Assembly (NCBI GenBank): GCA_903839975.1 | Contig: CAIMEH010000013.1 | Coordinates: 15,999-79,998, forward strand | Direction of reading: 5' to 3' | Source of the DNA: an uncultured Candidatus Berkelbacteria bacterium | GTDB taxonomy: Bacteria; Patescibacteriota; UBA1384; 2-12-FULL-50-11 | DNA length: 64,000 nucleotides | In this document: positions 4,840 to 36,769 of the stretch, one piece after another | Position numbering within the stretch: the first letter of the stretch is position 1 | How the letters are laid out: every line of letters starts with the position of its first letter | The notes under the pieces: generated by a model | The model's input: the letters and a program-made list of their open reading frames with translations, nothing else | Database searches by the model: none | What the model was told of the DNA's origin: nothing | Program-made: the position numbers and the translations under genes

Positions 4840-5430
4840 TTGGACAAACTCGAGTTTGGAAGGGTTAAGCCTTTCTATTTTAGATTTAAAGAAGACTTCC
4901 TAAAGGAAGTCACGACCGAACAGGAAAAAACCTGTTTGTTTATGTTCTTCACGGACGAGAATGCTCTGGTCAGGACGGTGCCGCCTTCACCGGCGGAGGA
5001 GATTGGTATCATCAGTCGAATTCATAAAGAGTTCGAGAAGATGAGGCAATTCGGGTCAAAGCATTTTCCGAGAGAAGAGTGCACGTACGAGGCAACCGAG
5101 CGCACCTATCAAAGTGCTCTCAAGAAGCTTCGTGACCGATGCGCTCTGTATCATGAAGAGGTGCACGACTGTCGGCACGAGCCGCTTGCAGTTATTCCGC
5201 TTGATTGGTGGGTAATTAAGCTGCTTAAGGCGACTTGCTACGACTCAACCGTCCGGATCGCCAGAGCGACTGACCGACAGCTGCTTTCGATTAGGGGTAT
5301 CGGACCAGTGACTCTAAAGCAGATTCGGGTTTTTATTCCGTTTGATCCGGAAGCTGGCAAGGTCGCACGCGACAGGCGCAGCCGAATCAATGCCCAGATC
5401 CGAGCCGGCCAAAAAGGTCTCGGAATCTGA
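4840..5430 (+). CDS. hypothetical protein with C-terminal helix-hairpin-helix-like motif; TTG start
   Basis: A good RBS (aaggggg) lies 7 nt before the TTG. The motif LLSIRGIGPVTLKQIR is HhH-like. Confidence 0.5.
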   Translation: MDKLEFGRVKPFYFRFKEDFLKEVTTEQEKTCLFMFFTDENALVRTVPPSPAEEIGIISRIHKEFEKMRQFGSKHFPREECTYEATERTYQSALKKLRDRCALYHEEVHDCRHEPLAVIPLDWWVIKLLKATCYDSTVRIARATDRQLLSIRGIGPVTLKQIRVFIPFDPEAGKVARDRRSRINAQIRAGQKGLGI

Positions 5431-5506: not shown

Positions 5507-6860
5507 TATGAACGAGAAAATTTTTAAAGCTTACGACATCCGCGGGACTTATCCAGACCAGGTTAACGAAGATTCGTTTAAGAGAATTGCTCAGGCCTTC
5601 GCCATGTATATTCAACCAAAAACCGTTGCCGTTGGTCGCGACGTTCGCGTTTCCGGGCCAAGTTTGCAAAAAGCCGTTATCGAGGGACTAATTTCAATGG
5701 GCGTAAATGTCATCGACATCGGAGTCGTACCAACGGAGATGATGTACTTTGCGGTAGGCTTGCTTGGTTTGGATGGCGGTATCCAGGTTTCGGCCAGTCA
5801 CAATCCAGCTGAGTATAACGGCCTCAAGATGGTCAAAAAAGGCGTCGAGGCTATCTCAACTGATACCGGTTTATTGCAGATAAAAGAAATGGCTCTTAGC
5901 GGTCAGGAATTTTCTGCTGAAACAAAAGGTGAAGTTAGGCAGAAAGATTTAACCGACGAGTACCTAGATTACATCGCCAAGCTAGTTAATTTAAAAGATT
6001 TGCCACAACTCAAGATTGTCGCCAACGGCAACTTTGGCATGAGTGGCGTTATGGCAAAGAAGTTAATCGAGAAAATGGAGTTGCCAATCGAACTAGTTGA
6101 ACTTAACTTCGAACCAGATGGAACATTTCCAAAAGGCCGCCCCGATCCTTTAATACCAGAGAATAGGGCTGAAACTAGCGCACAAGTCAAAGAAAACGGC
6201 GCAAATATGGGAGTAGCTTGGGACGCGGATGGCGATCGTTGCTACATCGCCGACGAAAGTGGTACGTTTATAGAAGGCTGCCACATGACGGCCTTGCTCG
6301 CTGTACACTTACTCGAGAAAAATCCTAAACAAAAGATTCTCTACGACCCACGAAATATCTATGCTACTCGTGATTCAATTACCGCTACTGGCGGAATCCC
6401 GATCGAAACCAAAACTGGCCACACTTTTATCAAAAACCGCATGCGTAGCGAACAGGCACTCTTTGCCGGCGAGATGAGCGGTCACTACTACTACCGCGAT
6501 TTCTATAACGCGGATAACGGCTTGCTAACATTTCTTTATTTCCTCGAGTTAATAGCCCAGAAGAAACAAAAAGTTTCAGAAATAGCAGCCCCGCTTAGAG
6601 AAAAATACTTCGTCTCCGGTGAGATTAATTTCAAGGTTAAAGATGCCCAGACGGCGATAGAAGCTATAAAAAAAGAATATCCCGACGGCAAGATCGACAC
6701 GACCGACGGCATCTCAATCGATTTTAACAGCTGGCGATTTAATCTGCGTTCCAGTAATACCGAACCGTTACTCCGATTGAATGTAGAATCAACCGACAAA
6801 AATATCTGCGAGCAGAAAACCGCCGAGCTTCGGTCGCTGATTGAAGATCACAAAGTTTAA
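5507..6860 (+). CDS. phosphoglucomutase/phosphomannomutase family protein
   Basis: Starts MNEKIFKAYDIRG. It has the active-site SASHNP motif (VSASHNPAEYNG) and the GEMSGH motif. Confidence 0.85.
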
Positions 6861-31160: not shown

Positions 31161-31733
31161 ATGGACTCACATCAAATCATCCGCGACCTTAATAGCAGCA
31201 GTCTTAAAAAGACGGTTGCCGATATTCGCGTAGGTGAAACCGTTAAGGTCCACTACAAGATTCGTGAAGGCGCCAAAGAACGTATCCAGATTTTCGAAGG
31301 CCTAGTTGTTGCTACCAAAAATGGCAAGGCTTTACAGGGCAGTTTTACCGTTCGCAAAGTTGTTAGCGGAATCGGCGTCGAAAGAATTTTCCCATTGCAC
31401 TCCCCATGGATTGTTAAAATTGAGACCACTAAATCCGGTAAAGTTCGCCGTGCCAAATTAAATTTTGTTCGCAAGTACGCCACCTCTTCTAAGTTCAAAC
31501 TTAAAGACAAAGGCAAGGCTGGTTCTATTTGGGAAACTGTGGCCGAAGAACAAGAAAAAGTAGCTGAAGCTGCCGAAGAACAAGAAAGCGCTGAAGTTGC
31601 ACCGGAAGTAATCGAAGAAACTCCAGAAGTTGCAGAAGTAACCGAAACCGCCGAGAATACAGACAATGACAAAGGCGAGCAAGGAGCTGGGGAACAGGTC
31701 GGAGAATCTAGCAGCGAAGCTGTTACAGAATAA
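31161..31733 (+). CDS. rplS: 50S ribosomal protein L19 with ~70-aa acidic C-terminal extension
   Basis: L19 core ([16 protein letters not shown]...[11 protein letters not shown]). The extension is E/A-rich. Confidence 0.85.
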
Positions 31734-32028
31734 GGGTTACAAGATTGTCGCGCAGAACCTGCGCACTAAGTACGGAGAGATCGATATCCTTGCCGAAGAT
31801 GGCAAGGCTTTAGTTGTTGTCGAGGTTAAGGCCAAAACTTCCGAAAGATTTGGCTCGGCTCTGGAGATGGTCACGCCAACCAAGCAGCGCAAACTGATTC
31901 TGCTAACTGCTGAACTTCAGGCCAAACATAAAGTTGAGAATGTCCGTATTGATGTTGTTGCCGTCGACAATGCTTCTTCTGAGCCAGTCCTAAAACACTA
32001 CAAAGGCATCGTCGAATTCCACGGCTAA
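31666..32028 (+). CDS. YraN/UPF0102 family endonuclease-like protein
   Basis: [36 protein letters not shown] matches the YraN signature. It overlaps the rplS 3' end by 68 nt in another frame. Confidence 0.7.
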
Positions 32029-32085
32029 AAAGTCACTATATGTAGCTATTTTATATTAACGTTATTATTAATATTCTCAGACACA

Positions 32086-32106
32086 AATATGACCGATAGG
32101 TCATAT
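32086..32106. repeat. palindrome copy 1: aatatgacc-gat-aggtcatatt, abutting the stop of the HTH gene
   Basis: Perfect 9-bp arms with a 3-bp spacer. Confidence 0.8.
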
Positions 32107-32108
32107 TG

Positions 32109-32435
32109 CTACTTGAGGGTAATATTCAGTTTTCTATCTAAAATATCTGCATATCTTTCCAGAAAATCTAACGATGGATTAAATTTTCCAGCCTCAAATT
32201 TAGAGACAACCGACTGATAGGTTTTTAATTTGTCGGCTAGCTGTTTTTGGGTCATTCTTTTTTGCAGCCTGGCGTTACGGAAACCGCCGATCACTAACTG
32301 TCGTTTCTCTGGTACTGCCATAGGCTCGGGTTTTGGCTTGATGTAGTGAGGATTGCGGACTTTTTTGTGGCGATATACCTTCTTTGGTCCACCGGTTGTA
32401 ATAATTATAAACTCATCAACGGTGTTTAATTCCAT
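32109..32435 (-). CDS. XRE-family helix-turn-helix transcriptional regulator
   Basis: C-terminal HTH_XRE region LQKRMTQKQLADKLKTYQSVVSKFEAGKFNPSLDFLERYADIL. An alternative start at the internal Met (MAVPEKRQL) is possible. Confidence 0.7.
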   Translation of the reverse strand: MELNTVDEFIIITTGGPKKVYRHKKVRNPHYIKPKPEPMAVPEKRQLVIGGFRNARLQKRMTQKQLADKLKTYQSVVSKFEAGKFNPSLDFLERYADILDRKLNITLK

Positions 32436-32439
32436 ACAC

Positions 32440-32465
32440 TAAATATGACCCGTAGGTCATATTTA
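32440..32465. repeat. palindrome copy 2: taaatatgacc-cgt-aggtcatattta, 5 bp upstream of the HTH start codon
   Basis: Perfect 11-bp arms. Confidence 0.8.
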
Positions 32466-32549
32466 TGCAAATGTGCTAGGATGGGTGCGCAAAGGCTTAA
32501 TAAATAAACTAACATAAGAGCATTTAAACTTTACAGACGGCTTTATGGC

Positions 32550-32578
32550 TTGACTTTCAGGTTAAAAGATGCTAATCT
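32550..32578 (+). promoter_or_regulatory. sigma70-like promoter TTGACT-17-TAATCT of the DGR target gene
   Basis: cttgactttcaggttaaaagatgctaatct, with RBS aaggagg before a GTG start at 32652. Confidence 0.5.
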
Positions 32579-32651
32579 TTAGCCACTCTAATTGAGTATT
32601 TTGTTCATTTACACGACCGCGGTGCAAAGCATCGCAAGGAGGAAGTAACCC

Positions 32652-33389
32652 GTGGAAGACGGAATTACCCCTATTCAAAAACAAGTTGATCATGCTGAAA
32701 ATATGATCGAGAGGACATTTTCAAACTATCCCGACGCCAAAAGGCTTCAAAGAGCCATGGGCAATGCCGACTGGAAAAAGCGCCTATGGGCGCTAGCAGA
32801 CGAGCTTGGCTTCGACCCAACCAAAATCTTGGAACGGGCTCGTTTCGAAGTTTATGGCAAGTTTCTGGGTTTTGATTGCCCAGACTTAACCCAGCTAGCT
32901 ATCCCAGCACCTAGGAATGGTTTCAATTGGATTCGTCCAATCGTAGCAATTCACGAAAAGGCCCCAAATGAAGCTGCCTTCCAGCAGCTAAAGAAGCAGT
33001 TTGGTGATAAGGCGTGGAAGTACACCGATAAGGTGCTTGACGAGGTGATAAAAGACAACGACCGTGACCCCCTTAAAAGCGGGCCTTACGTCATCCGAGC
33101 GCGCGACCGAGTTGAAGCTGACGAGGAGCTAAAAAACTTTTCAGCTAACCAACTGACTGAGCGCAAGATTGCTGGTAACACGCTCTATGAGCGACAGATA
33201 CTTGAAGCCTTTCACTATGTGGAAACCGGTGAACATTTAGACGTGGTGAATGTTACGCTCTGTTCAGGGTCACGTGGCTCCGACGGTAGCGTCCCGGACT
33301 ACTACTGGTACAACGGCGAGTTCAGGGTCCTTTGGTACTTTCCCGACGACCACAACGACAACTTGCGTGCCCGTGAGGTGGTTTCCTAA
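32652..33389 (+). CDS. DGR target (variable) protein. The C-terminal ~40 aa are encoded by the VR; the C-terminus is C-type-lectin/FGE-like, a frequent DGR-target architecture.
   Basis: The 3' 120 bp match the TR with A-specific substitutions. The C-terminal Y/W/N-rich segment (VPDYYWYNGEFRVLWYFPDDHNDNLRAREVVS) is typical of diversified CLec ligand-binding loops. Confidence 0.8.
   Translation: MEDGITPIQKQVDHAENMIERTFSNYPDAKRLQRAMGNADWKKRLWALADELGFDPTKILERARFEVYGKFLGFDCPDLTQLAIPAPRNGFNWIRPIVAIHEKAPNEAAFQQLKKQFGDKAWKYTDKVLDEVIKDNDRDPLKSGPYVIRARDRVEADEELKNFSANQLTERKIAGNTLYERQILEAFHYVETGEHLDVVNVTLCSGSRGSDGSVPDYYWYNGEFRVLWYFPDDHNDNLRAREVVS
33267..33386 (+). repeat. DGR variable region (VR)
   Basis: 120-bp homology to the TR. 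About 20 mismatches lie almost exclusively at TR adenine positions. The last ~35 bp are invariant and IMH-like. Confidence 0.85.
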
Positions 33390-33407
33390 CCCTTCTTCCT
33401 TTTCTCT

Positions 33408-33454
33408 TTTTCCCTTGCCCAGCCCAATGTTTTGCTCTGCAAAACTAGGGCTGG
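33408..33454 (+). terminator. GC-rich hairpin (gcccagccc...gggctgggc, with a nested inner stem) plus T-run immediately 3' of the VR. This is the DGR homing-associated hairpin and the terminator of the target gene.
   Basis: Read directly from the sequence. Confidence 0.7.
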
Positions 33455-33660
33455 GCTTTCTTTATGGCCAAAATTTTAATACTGTTGTTTTGGCTACAAA
33501 ACCGGTTCGTAGTTCGTTCGAATAGCGGTTTGCCAGCATTAGGAAACTACGTGCCAAGTTCAAAGAGGGTTGCTTCTACGCATGCCTCGTAATGCATCGC
33601 GAAAAGAAAATGTTTAATTTTCTGCTTATTTTGGCTCATACAGAAGGATAAGGCACATAA

Positions 33661-33780
33661 GGGTCACGTAACTCCAACGGTAACGTCCCGAACTGCAACT
33701 GGTACAACGACAAGTTCAGGGTCAATTGGTACAATCCCGACAACCACAACGACAACTTGCGTGCCCGTGAGATAGTCTCC
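33661..33780 (+). repeat. DGR template region (TR)
   Basis: Asn-codon (AAC)-rich when read in the VR frame (GSRNSNGNVPNCNWYNDKFRVNWYNPDNHNDNLRAREIVS). It is non-coding by itself. Confidence 0.85.
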
Positions 33781-33799
33781 GAAACGAACCCCGCTGTAT

Positions 33800-34186
33800 T
33801 TAGCGGGGTTCGTGATCTAATGATTTTATCCAACCGTTAGTCATCTGTGAGATTTCCTGAAGCTCTTGCGATACTAACACATAGTTTCTTGGCTTGATTA
33901 TTTTTAGCTCATAGCTAACTCTAATTAGCCTCTTCTCTAGCTCAACCTCTCTGCGTAATTTTTTAAGGTTAGGTAGCTTCTCTTGTTTGGGTAAAAAAGC
34001 CGCCTCTACAGCCAGTGTTAAGCTGTTTAAGCACGAGTTTTCGATCCTCGTAAATATTCCTAACTTGTCCCTCTTGGGTAGACTTGAGCTAAGGCTGTAA
34101 ATCTGTTTGTATAATTCAATAATCTTATGAACAACGGGAACATCGTTTGTGGAAAACTTTCCCGAGAGAGAGAGAGGGAGAGAGAG
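33800..34186 (-). CDS. avd: Avd-like accessory variability determinant (four-helix-bundle family). The open frame is 128 codons with no canonical start codon in frame.
   Basis: Translation ...VVHKIIELYKQIYSLSSSLPKRDKLGIFTRIENSCLNS...QELQEISQMTNGWIKSLDHEPR resembles Avd/bAvd proteins, including the C-terminal I.KMLNGLIKSL-type helix. The stop codon sits in the loop of hairpin 33786-33811. Confidence 0.6.
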   Translation of the reverse strand, partial: LSLPLSLSGKFSTNDVPVVHKIIELYKQIYSLSSSLPKRDKLGIFTRIENSCLNSLTLAVEAAFLPKQEKLPNLKKLRREVELEKRLIRVSYELKIIKPRNYVLVSQELQEISQMTNGWIKSLDHEPR

Positions 34187-35184
34187 CTAAAAGAGTCTTT
34201 TTCCATGAAGGTACTTTCGCAAAAATAATCTCTTTAGACAACCTATTCTTGGCATGGGCGAATTATTGTAAGGGCAAGAGGAGTAAAGATGATGTTCAGA
34301 AATTTGAATTTTCGCTAGAAGACAATATTTTCCAGCTTCATAACGAGTTGCTAGCGCACAAATACAGTCCAGGAAAATACCAACAATTTTTAATCACTGA
34401 CCCCAAAAAGCGAGTCATAAGCAAAGCACTGGTTCGCGATCGTTTGCTTCATCAAGCGATTTATCAGATTCTTTATCCGCTCTACGACAAAACTTTTATT
34501 TTTGATAGCTATTCATGTCGCAACGGTAAAGGAACGCACAAAGCATTTGCTCGGCTTGTTTCCATGACGCAAAAAGTCAGTCGCAGCTACACCGCACCTT
34601 GTTGGGCGTTGAAGATGGATATTAGAAGGTTTTTTGACAGTATCGACCACGAAACTTTGCTTGAGCTTCTTGGGCAAAGAATAAACGATGCTTACTTAAT
34701 GACGCTACTGGAAAATATTGTAAGAAGCTTTGAATTCAGCCCAGGCAAGGGTATGCCACTTGGAAATCTAACTAGTCAGCTTTTTGCCAATATCTACATG
34801 GATCCGTTAGATAAATTCTTAAAACACAAACTAAATGCTAAATACTATCTGCGCTACGCCGATGATTTTGCAGTTGTCTCGTCAGACCATGATGAATTAC
34901 TTGGGTATTTTATTGAGATAAATAGTTTTCTTAAAGAAAAACTAAAACTATCGTTCCATCCGAATAAAATTGGTCTCCGTAAATTAAGCTGGGGCATTGA
35001 TTTTGTCGGCTATGTGGCGTTACCGCACTATCAATTACCAAGAAATAAAACCGTAAAGCGAATATTGAAGAAAGTCGCAAAATCTTCCGAAGAGGAATTG
35101 TCAAAAACTTTGCCGTCGTACCTTGGCTATCTTAACCACGCTTCAAGCCACAAAGTTACTAAAAAAATAATGCCTTCTACCTAG
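34147..35184 (+). CDS. DGR reverse transcriptase; TTG start as in the ORF track, true N-terminus uncertain
   Basis: RT motifs: DGR-specific LGNLTSQLFANIY (I/LGxxxSQ in motif 4), catalytic YADD (YLRYADDFAV), and the motif 1/2 region (RVISKALVRDRLLHQAIY). Confidence 0.9.
   Translation: MWKTFPREREGERAKRVFFHEGTFAKIISLDNLFLAWANYCKGKRSKDDVQKFEFSLEDNIFQLHNELLAHKYSPGKYQQFLITDPKKRVISKALVRDRLLHQAIYQILYPLYDKTFIFDSYSCRNGKGTHKAFARLVSMTQKVSRSYTAPCWALKMDIRRFFDSIDHETLLELLGQRINDAYLMTLLENIVRSFEFSPGKGMPLGNLTSQLFANIYMDPLDKFLKHKLNAKYYLRYADDFAVVSSDHDELLGYFIEINSFLKEKLKLSFHPNKIGLRKLSWGIDFVGYVALPHYQLPRNKTVKRILKKVAKSSEEELSKTLPSYLGYLNHASSHKVTKKIMPST
34164..34186. repeat. (GA)n / (CT)n dinucleotide microsatellite at the divergent overlap of the RT and Avd N-termini
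   Basis: gagagagagagagggagagagag. Confidence 0.9.
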
Positions 35185-35221
35185 CTACTTTTGGTTGCAC
35201 AAATTTTTTATCTTACTTGAA

Positions 35222-35255
35222 GGCATAAATATGACCTATAGGTCATATTTATGCC
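35222..35255. repeat. palindrome copy 3: ggcataaatatgacc-tat-ggtcatatttatgcc, lying between the RT stop and gltX
   Basis: Perfect 15-bp arms. It shares the core aaatatgacc/ggtcatattt with copies 1 and 2. Confidence 0.8.
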
Positions 35256-35308
35256 AATAGTTATCATTGAGTGAAGCCAGAAACCCCAAAAACAGGTACA
35301 ATACAAAC

Positions 35309-36769
35309 ATGGAAAACGAAGAAATCAGAGTTCGATTTGCCCCGTCACCAACCGGCAAATTCCACATTGGTAGTGCCAGAACGGCTCTGTTCAACTATCT
35401 TTTTGCCAAGAAAATGGGCGGCAAGTTTATTCTGCGTATCGAAGACACCGACAAAGAACGTAGCAGCGAAGAATATACCCAAGACATTATCAACTCACTT
35501 CTCTGGCTGGGTATCGGTTGGGACGAAGGTCCGCAGGTTGGTGGCGAGTACGGCCCGTATTTTCAGACCCAACGCCTAGGTTCGTACAAAAAATTTGCCG
35601 ACAAACTTTTAGAGGACAAAAAAGCCTACAAGTGTTTTTGCACGGCAGAAGAACTTGAAGCAGAGCGAACCGCTCAACACGCTGCCAAGCAAGCACCAAA
35701 GTACTCTGGCAAATGTCGCAATCTGACCCCTGAACAAGTAGCCGAGAACGAGAAGGCCGGCAAGCCGTTTGCTATCCGTTTTATCACCCAAGAGAAGAAG
35801 GTAGATTTTGACGATCTGATCAAAGGTCATATCAGTTACGACGCAGGGTTAATAGGCGATTTTACAATCGTTCGTTCCGACGGCATGCCACTTTTCACTT
35901 TCGCAGTTGTTGTTGACGATTACGAGATGAAAATCAGCCACGTTTTGCGAGGCGAAGAACATCTGCCAAACGCCGCCAAACATATTCTGATTGCTGAAGC
36001 AATGCAGATTATGCCACCGCAGTTTGGCCACATGCCGTTAATTTTGAATACCGACAAAACCAAGATGAGTAAGCGCAAAGATCCAGTTTCTGTGACCGAC
36101 GACTATCGGGCCAAAGGCTACCTGCCAGACGCCTTGGTTAACTTTATCGCCTTGCTCGGTTGGAATAACACCGACGATCAAGAAATTTATTCCATGAAAG
36201 AGCTGATTCAGGAGTTCCAGATCGAGCGTGTCGGCAAAAGTCCATCCATCTTTGATCGCGAAAAATTGCTTTGGATGAATGGTTTGTACATCCGCCATCT
36301 AACTGTTGGCGAGTTGGCATCGCAAGCCCAGAATTTTATTACCGACAAAGAGTTGGAAGATAAGATTATGGAGCGGCCAGATTTCTACCTTCAGGCTGTG
36401 GCTCTGGTTCAAGATCGCTTAAAATTACTCAGCGAAGTTCAGGAGATGATTAAGTTTTTCTTCTTCCCGCAAGAGTATGATGCCGAAGTTTTGATCGCCA
36501 AAAAATCAGATAAAACACGCACAGCTTTGGCTCTAAAGCTGGCCGAGGAAGAACTGGCCAAACTAACCAAATTCTCTCACGACGAGACCGAATCAACTCT
36601 GCGAGCCGCCGCTCAAGTTAACGAGCTGCAAGCCGGTGAAATTTTATGGTCGGTTCGTGCCGCCCTTTCCGGAAGTTCTGCATCGCCAGGAGTATTCGAA
36701 TTACTCGAGGTATTCGGCAAAGACGAATCCCTAAAACGCATCGCCACTGCCCGCACAAAACTTGCCTAA
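35309..36769 (+). CDS. gltX: glutamyl-tRNA synthetase
   Basis: MENEEIRVRFAPSPTGKFHIGSART (HIGH-type motif) and KMSKRK (KMSKS motif). Confidence 0.9.
   Translation: MENEEIRVRFAPSPTGKFHIGSARTALFNYLFAKKMGGKFILRIEDTDKERSSEEYTQDIINSLLWLGIGWDEGPQVGGEYGPYFQTQRLGSYKKFADKLLEDKKAYKCFCTAEELEAERTAQHAAKQAPKYSGKCRNLTPEQVAENEKAGKPFAIRFITQEKKVDFDDLIKGHISYDAGLIGDFTIVRSDGMPLFTFAVVVDDYEMKISHVLRGEEHLPNAAKHILIAEAMQIMPPQFGHMPLILNTDKTKMSKRKDPVSVTDDYRAKGYLPDALVNFIALLGWNNTDDQEIYSMKELIQEFQIERVGKSPSIFDREKLLWMNGLYIRHLTVGELASQAQNFITDKELEDKIMERPDFYLQAVALVQDRLKLLSEVQEMIKFFFFPQEYDAEVLIAKKSDKTRTALALKLAEEELAKLTKFSHDETESTLRAAAQVNELQAGEILWSVRAALSGSSASPGVFELLEVFGKDESLKRIATARTKLA

Follow-up and report, generated by a model that had tools for sequence, protein, structure and literature searches.

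A chromosomal diversity-generating retroelement in a Berkelbacteria genome with a repeat tract where avd and the reverse transcriptase gene overlap at their 5' ends

A stretch of 64,000 nucleotides from contig CAIMEH010000013.1 of an uncultured Candidatus Berkelbacteria bacterium, referred to below as the window, very probably carries a chromosomal diversity-generating retroelement (DGR) of the type found in candidate-phyla-radiation (CPR) bacteria. The element is arranged as a target gene ending in the variable region (VR), a template region (TR), an antisense avd (accessory variability determinant) frame, and a reverse transcriptase (RT) gene, and whether it is running at present is uncertain. 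The locus had been identified as a DGR in a preliminary description of the sequence, and this identification is borne out by an adenine-specific TR/VR pair, a DGR-type RT, and a target with a C-terminus predicted to adopt a C-type lectin (CLec)/formylglycine-generating enzyme (FGE) fold. The most interesting lead is a slippage-prone tract that, throughout the family of related loci, is shared by the 5' ends of the overlapping avd and RT genes and that may bear on DGR regulation. The features of the element, including a core that resembles the initiation of mutagenic homing (IMH) sequence, are the following.

32652-33389, + strand: target gene, 245 aa, with a GTG start, AAGGAGG 9 nt upstream, and the VR as its 3' end
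33266-33389, + strand: VR, covering target residues 205-245 and the stop codon and containing the invariant GC-rich IMH-like core TTGCGTGCCCGTG
33390-33416, + strand: pyrimidine-rich spacer after the VR, CCCTTCTTCCTTTTCTCTTTTTCCCTT, with CCTTGT-type repeats at this place in relatives
33417-33456 (element to 33465), + strand: GC-rich hairpin with T-run; dG -18 kcal/mol as DNA, z = -5.7; followed by TTTCTTTAT
33660-33783, + strand: TR, 124 nt, non-coding, containing 38 A and the equivalents of 12 AAY codons
33784-33813, + strand: perfect 13-bp GC-rich hairpin directly 3' of the TR; dG -15.7 kcal/mol, z = -7.3
34186-33803, with TAA stop at 33800-33802, - strand: avd open frame of 128 codons, between TR and RT
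34127-34206, no strand assigned: head-to-head overlap of the avd and RT starts, with conserved ATGs antisense to the partner's His codon
34164-34186, no strand assigned: (GA)6GG(GA)4G tract, 23 nt, at the site of a G7-G14 tract in relatives
34147-35184, + strand: DGR RT, 345 aa from TTG 34147; RVT_1 E = 5e-25

The TR and VR form a direct repeat of 124 nt that aligns without gaps at 85% identity and at a constant offset of 394 nt, and they are the sole pair of this kind within the window. TR adenines account for 15 of the 18 mismatches, an enrichment upheld by pairwise alignment and a tally by TR base (hypergeometric P = 8e-7, given 38 A in 124 nt). Codon positions 1 and 2 hold most of the TR adenines (34 of 38), and among the codon equivalents of the TR are 10 AAC and two AAT. 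The codon changes that were listed in the preliminary description, namely AAC to GGC, GAC, AGC, or TAC, AAT to CTT or TTT, AAG to GAG, and TGC to TAC, are all correct. The repeat was described there as 120 nt long with about 20 mismatches; it is indeed ungapped, but only 17 mismatches fall inside those 120 nt, 15 of them at A, and the full repeat measures 124 nt. Three non-adenine differences from TR to VR were found where a single one had been counted (G33695 to A, C33777 to T, and G33781 to T), and the longest identical stretch at the VR 3' end spans 29 nt (33349-33377) instead of about 35 bp. Non-adenine substitutions are frequent in the CPR DGR set (Wu et al. 2018, PMC5758913), so that the difference initially regarded as an oddity is ordinary. 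As the mismatch pattern records, mutagenic homing has taken place in this lineage.

The GC-rich core is the same in VR and TR, the final 12 nt differ at four positions, and a hairpin lies beyond, a pattern that is repeated in ~30 relatives. Across the family, mutagenesis ends 26 nt ahead of the stop codon. Next comes a GC-rich stretch of 14 nt, YTGCGYNCNCGYG, with almost no mismatches between VR and TR, and homology then decays over the last ~10 nt. In nearly every related locus, CCTTGT-type repeats within a pyrimidine-rich stretch are found after the stop codon, together with a GC hairpin and a T-run. In the window, the GC hairpin and T-run that had been noticed after the VR are present at 33417-33456. 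This element (33417-33465) is terminator-like and, by homology, we infer that it corresponds to the hairpin element of DGR target sites, and that the IMH-like core and hairpin of the family are the expected equivalents of the IMH and the target-site hairpin.

Repeats of the CCTTGT or CTTGTAC type occupy the first ~30 nt beyond the VR stop codon in most members (L011, L021, L024, L027, L042, L060, L079, and others) and are absent after the TR. They occur in three tandem copies in L060 and may be part of the homing target site. The second hairpin, at 33784-33813, overlaps the last avd codons on the opposite strand, and the avd stop codon lies just 5' of it. This hairpin could terminate the TR transcript, terminate avd, or belong to the RNA recognised by the RT.

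The RT is intact over 345 codons, and both motifs that had been ascribed to it were located, LGNLTSQ at 34759-34779 and YADD at 34855-34866. Its placement in the DGR clade was made by search scores and motifs. The best solved relative is the Bordetella bRT (8ub7), with E = 7e-45 over residues 20-337, followed by group II and retron RTs at ~1e-20. The RT was also checked for a position outside the DGR group, and this is not the case, the Bordetella DGR RT being closest. The element had been called complete while its avd frame, which lies on the opposite strand, was overlooked, and this frame has no usable start codon. With no ATG, GTG, or TTG near its 5' end, avd was consequently missing from the list of open reading frames (ORFs). 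The position and strand of avd are common to ~40 related loci, and a search of the PDB with the single Avd sequence gave no match.

A scan of species-representative genomes identified 80 loci with a target homologue. About 40 of these have the same cassette of target (VR, +), TR (+), avd (-), and RT (+), and in these cassette-bearing relatives 80-100% of the VR/TR mismatches occur at TR adenines (e.g., 19/19, 22/22, 20/20, and 27/27). The remaining half are target paralogues without a TR or RT within 5 kb.

In the window, avd and the RT gene start head to head. The RT ATG (34127-34129) lies antisense to the Avd His codon, as does the Avd ATG (34206-34204, - strand) to the His codon of the RT. 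Neither ATG is in frame with its gene; the RT ATG opens a frame of 33 codons that ends at 34226-34228, and the Avd ATG opens a frame of 48 codons. Each ATG sits 77 nt from the partner's His codon, and 77 leaves a remainder of 2 on division by 3. A change of -2, +1, or +4 nt in the tract restores both genes at once, with lengths of 351-353 aa for the RT and 134-136 aa for Avd. The restored N-termini resemble those of in-frame relatives (MNNGNIVCGK vs ..DNGDFPCGK in P0131). As assembled, the RT keeps an in-frame TTG at 34147, which is also the start used by the public gene call (P0121).

An extended -10 box, TGTATAAT, occurs as a perfect match at 34107-34114, 12 nt upstream of the out-of-frame RT ATG at 34127, and no Shine-Dalgarno sequence is found between the box and this ATG. 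As a consensus match only, the box hints at a leaderless or near-leaderless RT mRNA. A promoter and terminator consensus scan gave no more matches than the shuffled expectation.

The same arrangement is found in relatives, in which the conserved RT ATG is the reverse complement of the Avd His codon (VPLV-H-K) and the Avd ATG is the reverse complement of a conserved RT His that aligns with His5 of bRT. It follows from this antisense pairing at both ends that avd and RT overlap head to head by ~40-80 nt. The ratio of CAT to CAC is 65:1 at the Avd His codon (P = 8e-12) and 115:1 at the RT His codon (P = 4e-21), against a baseline of 64% CAT in RT genes. As the CAT bias lies far over this baseline, codon usage does not account for the overlapping arrangement. 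A G tract, read as GGG in the RT and as PPP in Avd, is present within the overlap in almost all loci. Tracts of G7-G14, mostly G9-G11, occur in more than 100 related Patescibacteria loci (L005-L079 and L091-L210; e.g., L013 at 2279-2348, L114, and L130), and at least 120 further loci came from scanning metagenomes for G8 together with the motif of the RT N-terminus.

The reading frame of the RT ATG was tallied among the matches listed, for the 74 loci that have a tract of at least 7 nt and, where it is expected, a start codon. This ATG is in frame in 17 of them (23%), displaced by +1 in 39, and displaced by +2 in 18, while it is in frame in all four tract-less loci. Since one tract separates each ATG from its gene, an insertion or deletion in it should shift both genes alike. 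By a lenient criterion, which accepts any upstream in-frame ATG, GTG, or TTG, both genes can be started in 56 of 107 tract-bearing loci among the matches listed, the rest lacking such a start for one or both. In loci assembled out of frame, the long ORFs are nonetheless intact and the VR mismatches are confined to adenines (19/19 in L005, 22/22 in L011, and 20/20 in L047). Contigs of the same species carry identical tracts in seven of eight pairs, five of these being out of frame; the tracts of the remaining pair show a 2-nt difference. In the species of P0218, an out-of-frame G9 is common to three samples.

Two relatives also have a GA tract, (GA)5G of 11 nt in L211 and (GA)9G of 19 nt in L212, and the (GA)n tract is therefore a natural, length-variable replacement of poly-G. 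The RT of L211 has an in-frame GTG at the equivalent of the window TTG, and that of L212 has an in-frame ATG. In one sub-clade (RT MKIQLTHKF, Avd MSIIQ), the tract is intergenic, both ATGs being placed just past it. This arrangement was considered as a general explanation and rejected, as an RT start codon between tract and His codon is missing from most loci and the CAT bias favours the upstream ATGs. A role of poly-G as a Shine-Dalgarno sequence for non-canonical starts was likewise discarded, no consistent start codon being found after the tract. A description of the avd/RT overlap and its tract was not found in the searchable literature, which did not extend to the principal paper on CPR DGRs.

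By homology to the Bordetella phage system, the TR would be transcribed and copied by RT and Avd into cDNA, with misincorporation opposite template adenines, and the cDNA would take the place of the VR, with which the target gene ends. The homing boundary would be set by the invariant GC-rich IMH-like core of 13-14 nt and the downstream hairpin. Up to 24 codons would be recoded in this way, and these are predicted to form the C-terminal beta-strands of a C-type-lectin-fold domain in the 245-aa protein. Tentatively, and at less than an even chance, we propose that the length of the tract, or slippage in it during replication, transcription, or translation, gates avd and RT jointly and confines hypermutation to a subpopulation, with a helix-turn-helix (HTH) repressor at palindromes cooperating in the window. 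On our best reading of the window, Avd, and a full-length RT from its native ATG, would be produced only after slippage in the (GA)n tract. Mutagenesis would be off in most cells, because both genes need repair by loss of one GA unit, and the flanking HTH protein and three palindromic sites would probably add transcriptional control.

How cells restrain DGRs is, to our knowledge, largely unknown. If the tract were a true switch, it would be a simple way to limit mutagenic homing to few cells, a contingency switch placed atop a diversity generator. Annotation pipelines would also be expected to mis-start or miss the RT and Avd in such elements.

Several observations weigh against a working, tract-gated element. 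Frequent switching at the DNA level is invisible in the consensus sequences, seven of the eight same-species pairs and the three samples of one species being constant. The Avd ATG is out of frame in both L211 and L212, and the L212 Avd is also internally broken, which is compatible with decay. In the window, the avd frame contains no ATG, GTG, or TTG able to start it, its match to Pfam bAvd (PF22296, E = 6e-10) scores exactly at the gathering cut-off, and its match to NCBIfam DivGenRetAVD (NF033474, E = 1.4e-15) is under the curated cut-off. Seven TR adenines matching the identical stretch 33349-33377 (codons CAC AAC GAC AAC ... GAG) are all unchanged in the VR, and the corresponding codon positions rank among the most mutated in relatives, in 15 of 31 loci. 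The closest target homologues (54-58% identity; L001/L002, L003/L004, and L085-L089) have a decayed TR, fragments of RT and avd, or no cassette. A metagenome scan with the TR pattern and wildcarded adenines gave no match, and exact-sequence look-ups of the window RT, the target, and P0001 identified no second contig. Homing had been called active in the preliminary description, and this goes too far: the mismatch pattern proves past homing only, the ATGs of RT and Avd are frame-shifted, and the closest relatives are without an RT. With neither ATG in frame and no canonical start for Avd, current activity is unproven.

A relic, in which the VR was diversified formerly and is now frozen, the Avd start is lost, the RT start is frame-shifted, and the element is inactive, is somewhat unlikely. 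It would agree with the out-of-frame canonical ATGs of both genes, the want of an alternative Avd start, the unmutated adenines at the VR 3' end, and the internally broken Avd of L212. Every stage of decay is also found among relatives. In L003/L004, RT and avd are reduced to fragments beside a recognisable TR, while L001/L002 have a degraded TR and no RT. The target homologue P0004 is identical in six contigs from several samples, with no RT and a frozen VR. However, the RT ORF of the window is intact over its 345 codons with all motifs present, 128 codons of open Avd frame remain and give matches to Avd hidden Markov models, and one 2-nt change repairs both genes. In addition, three quarters of the related loci are out of frame as well, yet their ORFs are intact and their VRs are cleanly mutated at adenines, so that being out of frame need not mean being dead. 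Because its closest relatives have lost the RT, the window is regarded as an intact member of a sub-lineage that is prone to cassette decay.

An error of assembly or sequencing in a low-complexity tract is an improbable source of the frame shift; the DGR would then be constitutively complete, with both genes starting at their ATGs. Dinucleotide and homopolymer tracts are error-prone, and N-gaps or duplications occur right at the tract in L050 and L064. Against this, out-of-frame tract lengths are exactly repeated in independent assemblies (five same-species pairs, and P0218 in three samples), which makes a random error unlikely; random homopolymer error was rejected on this ground for the poly-G loci too. 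Avd is likewise out of frame in L211 and L212, where the tracts measure 11 and 19 nt, and the window and L211 have a conserved in-frame alternative RT start, as expected if the shifted state is real. That there is no DGR at all, but a tandem duplication of a gene 3' end beside an unrelated group II intron or retron RT, has next to no probability: the best NCBIfam model for the RT is a group II intron RT/maturase, but far under its cut-off, and this explanation is countered by the adenine-specific asymmetry, the match of the RT to its Bordetella DGR counterpart, which is far closer than those to group II or retron RTs, the adjoining Avd homologue, the absence of a maturase, an intron RNA, or an Rfam match, and the conservation of the same cassette in dozens of genomes.

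The B3 architecture, TR-(avd)-RT, occurs in 90% of CPR DGRs (Wu et al. 2018, NAR 46:11, PMC5758913). The window has this order, with TR at 33660-33783 (+), avd at 34186-33800 (-), and RT at 34147-35184 (+). It resembles CPR B3 DGRs in gene order and strands, the upstream target, occasional non-adenine substitutions, a target without a recognisable sequence domain, and a chromosomal housekeeping context. In contrast, it has a (GA)n tract where most relatives have poly-G, as well as an adjacent HTH gene and three bracketing palindromes. The locus adds one example to the thousands of catalogued DGRs of CPR bacteria.

The DGR of Bordetella phage BPP-1 (mtd-avd-TR-brt) shares with the window an RT that is homologous over its full length (E = 7e-45), and this homology takes in the N-terminal His and the catalytic box as well as the (I/L)GxxxSQ motif. 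Also shared are a predicted Avd-family accessory protein, adenine-specific differences from TR to VR, and a GC-rich invariant core at the VR 3' end that is followed by a hairpin. Unlike in BPP-1, avd of the window is antisense and lies between TR and RT, and for this reason TR and avd cannot share a sense transcript. The window also differs in having YADD instead of YMDD as the catalytic box, in lying outside a phage, and in having a target that is no tail fibre and bears no export signal.

In simple-sequence contingency loci, such as those of Neisseria, Haemophilus, and Campylobacter, homopolymer or dinucleotide tracts switch genes by slipped-strand mispairing. The avd/RT junction is alike in that a short tract in the 5' coding part sets the frame of the ATG, and related loci are found in all three frame states. 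It is unlike them in that one tract serves two divergent, overlapping genes and that length variation within a species was seen once in nine comparisons, so that this is a resemblance and not membership.

The target protein is predicted to consist of an N-terminal helical region followed by a C-type-lectin-fold domain. For its C-terminus, a CLec/FGE fold is predicted, and the variable residues would be presented by this fold. No recognisable sequence domain was found in the target, a search of the PDB with the sequence profile of the target family gave no match, and Foldseek with the target returned nothing significant. The 245-aa protein contains no signal peptide, transmembrane or hydrophobic segment, lipoprotein signal, or secretion signal. 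It had been described as non-secreted, which agrees with this result, and it is apparently soluble and cytoplasmic. Compared with variable proteins of C-type-lectin/FGE fold, namely Treponema TvpA (2y3c), Thermus TaqVP (5vf4), and the Legionella Lcl/LdtA-type domain (8q4e), the target has no detectable sequence similarity, and it differs from these proteins by its distinct N-terminal helical region and the absence of a lipoprotein or secretion signal. A predicted C-type lectin fold and a likely cytoplasmic location are thus assigned to a widespread, unannotated target family.

Several genomes contain two to three target paralogues, as in L009, L025, and L075 (one Magasanikbacteria contig, PFBV01000003.1), L010/L015, and L016/L055. 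Most such paralogues have no TR or RT within 5 kb and may be remote targets of one DGR or non-diversified copies.

The neighbours of the cassette are the housekeeping genes dnaE, rpmA, rplS, yraN, gltX, tRNA-Gln, and dus, and the setting is not a phage. An HTH gene and three copies of a palindrome are located around the element.

32109-32435, - strand: Xre-type HTH gene, 108 aa, divergent from the target gene; Pfam HTH_3 E = 8e-11
32086-32107, no strand assigned: palindrome copy 1, AATATGACCnnnnGGTCATATT, 22 nt, perfect, just past the 3' end of the HTH gene
32442-32463, no strand assigned: palindrome copy 2, perfect, between the HTH start and the target start; single-stranded DNA fold z = -5.2
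35228-35249, no strand assigned: palindrome copy 3, perfect, between the RT stop and gltX; extended 15-bp stem z = -8.2

Perfect copies of AATATGACCnnnnGGTCATATT were seen three times in the 64 kb vs 0.03 expected, with none elsewhere, and a weak fourth site lies at 32700-32721. The HTH gene and the entire DGR are enclosed by the three perfect copies. An HTH homologue (40% identity) adjoins the related cassette in L003/L004. L003 has three palindromes of its own (4843-4883, 6372-6412, and 6777-6817), which share GTCATAT/ATATGAC half-sites and bracket the decayed cassette and the HTH gene, with the module order reversed and in a different genomic neighbourhood. The HTH gene and palindromes suggest a candidate regulator-operator pair or the boundaries of a movable module. 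A search of Rfam over 31500-36000 gave nothing credible. Further upstream, the rplS (L19) ORF at 31161-31733 encodes 190 aa and ends in an acidic C-terminal tail of ~70 residues that is rich in Glu, Ala, Val, and Thr. This tail contains short repeats (GCCGAAGAACAAGAAA twice) and overlaps the start of yraN.

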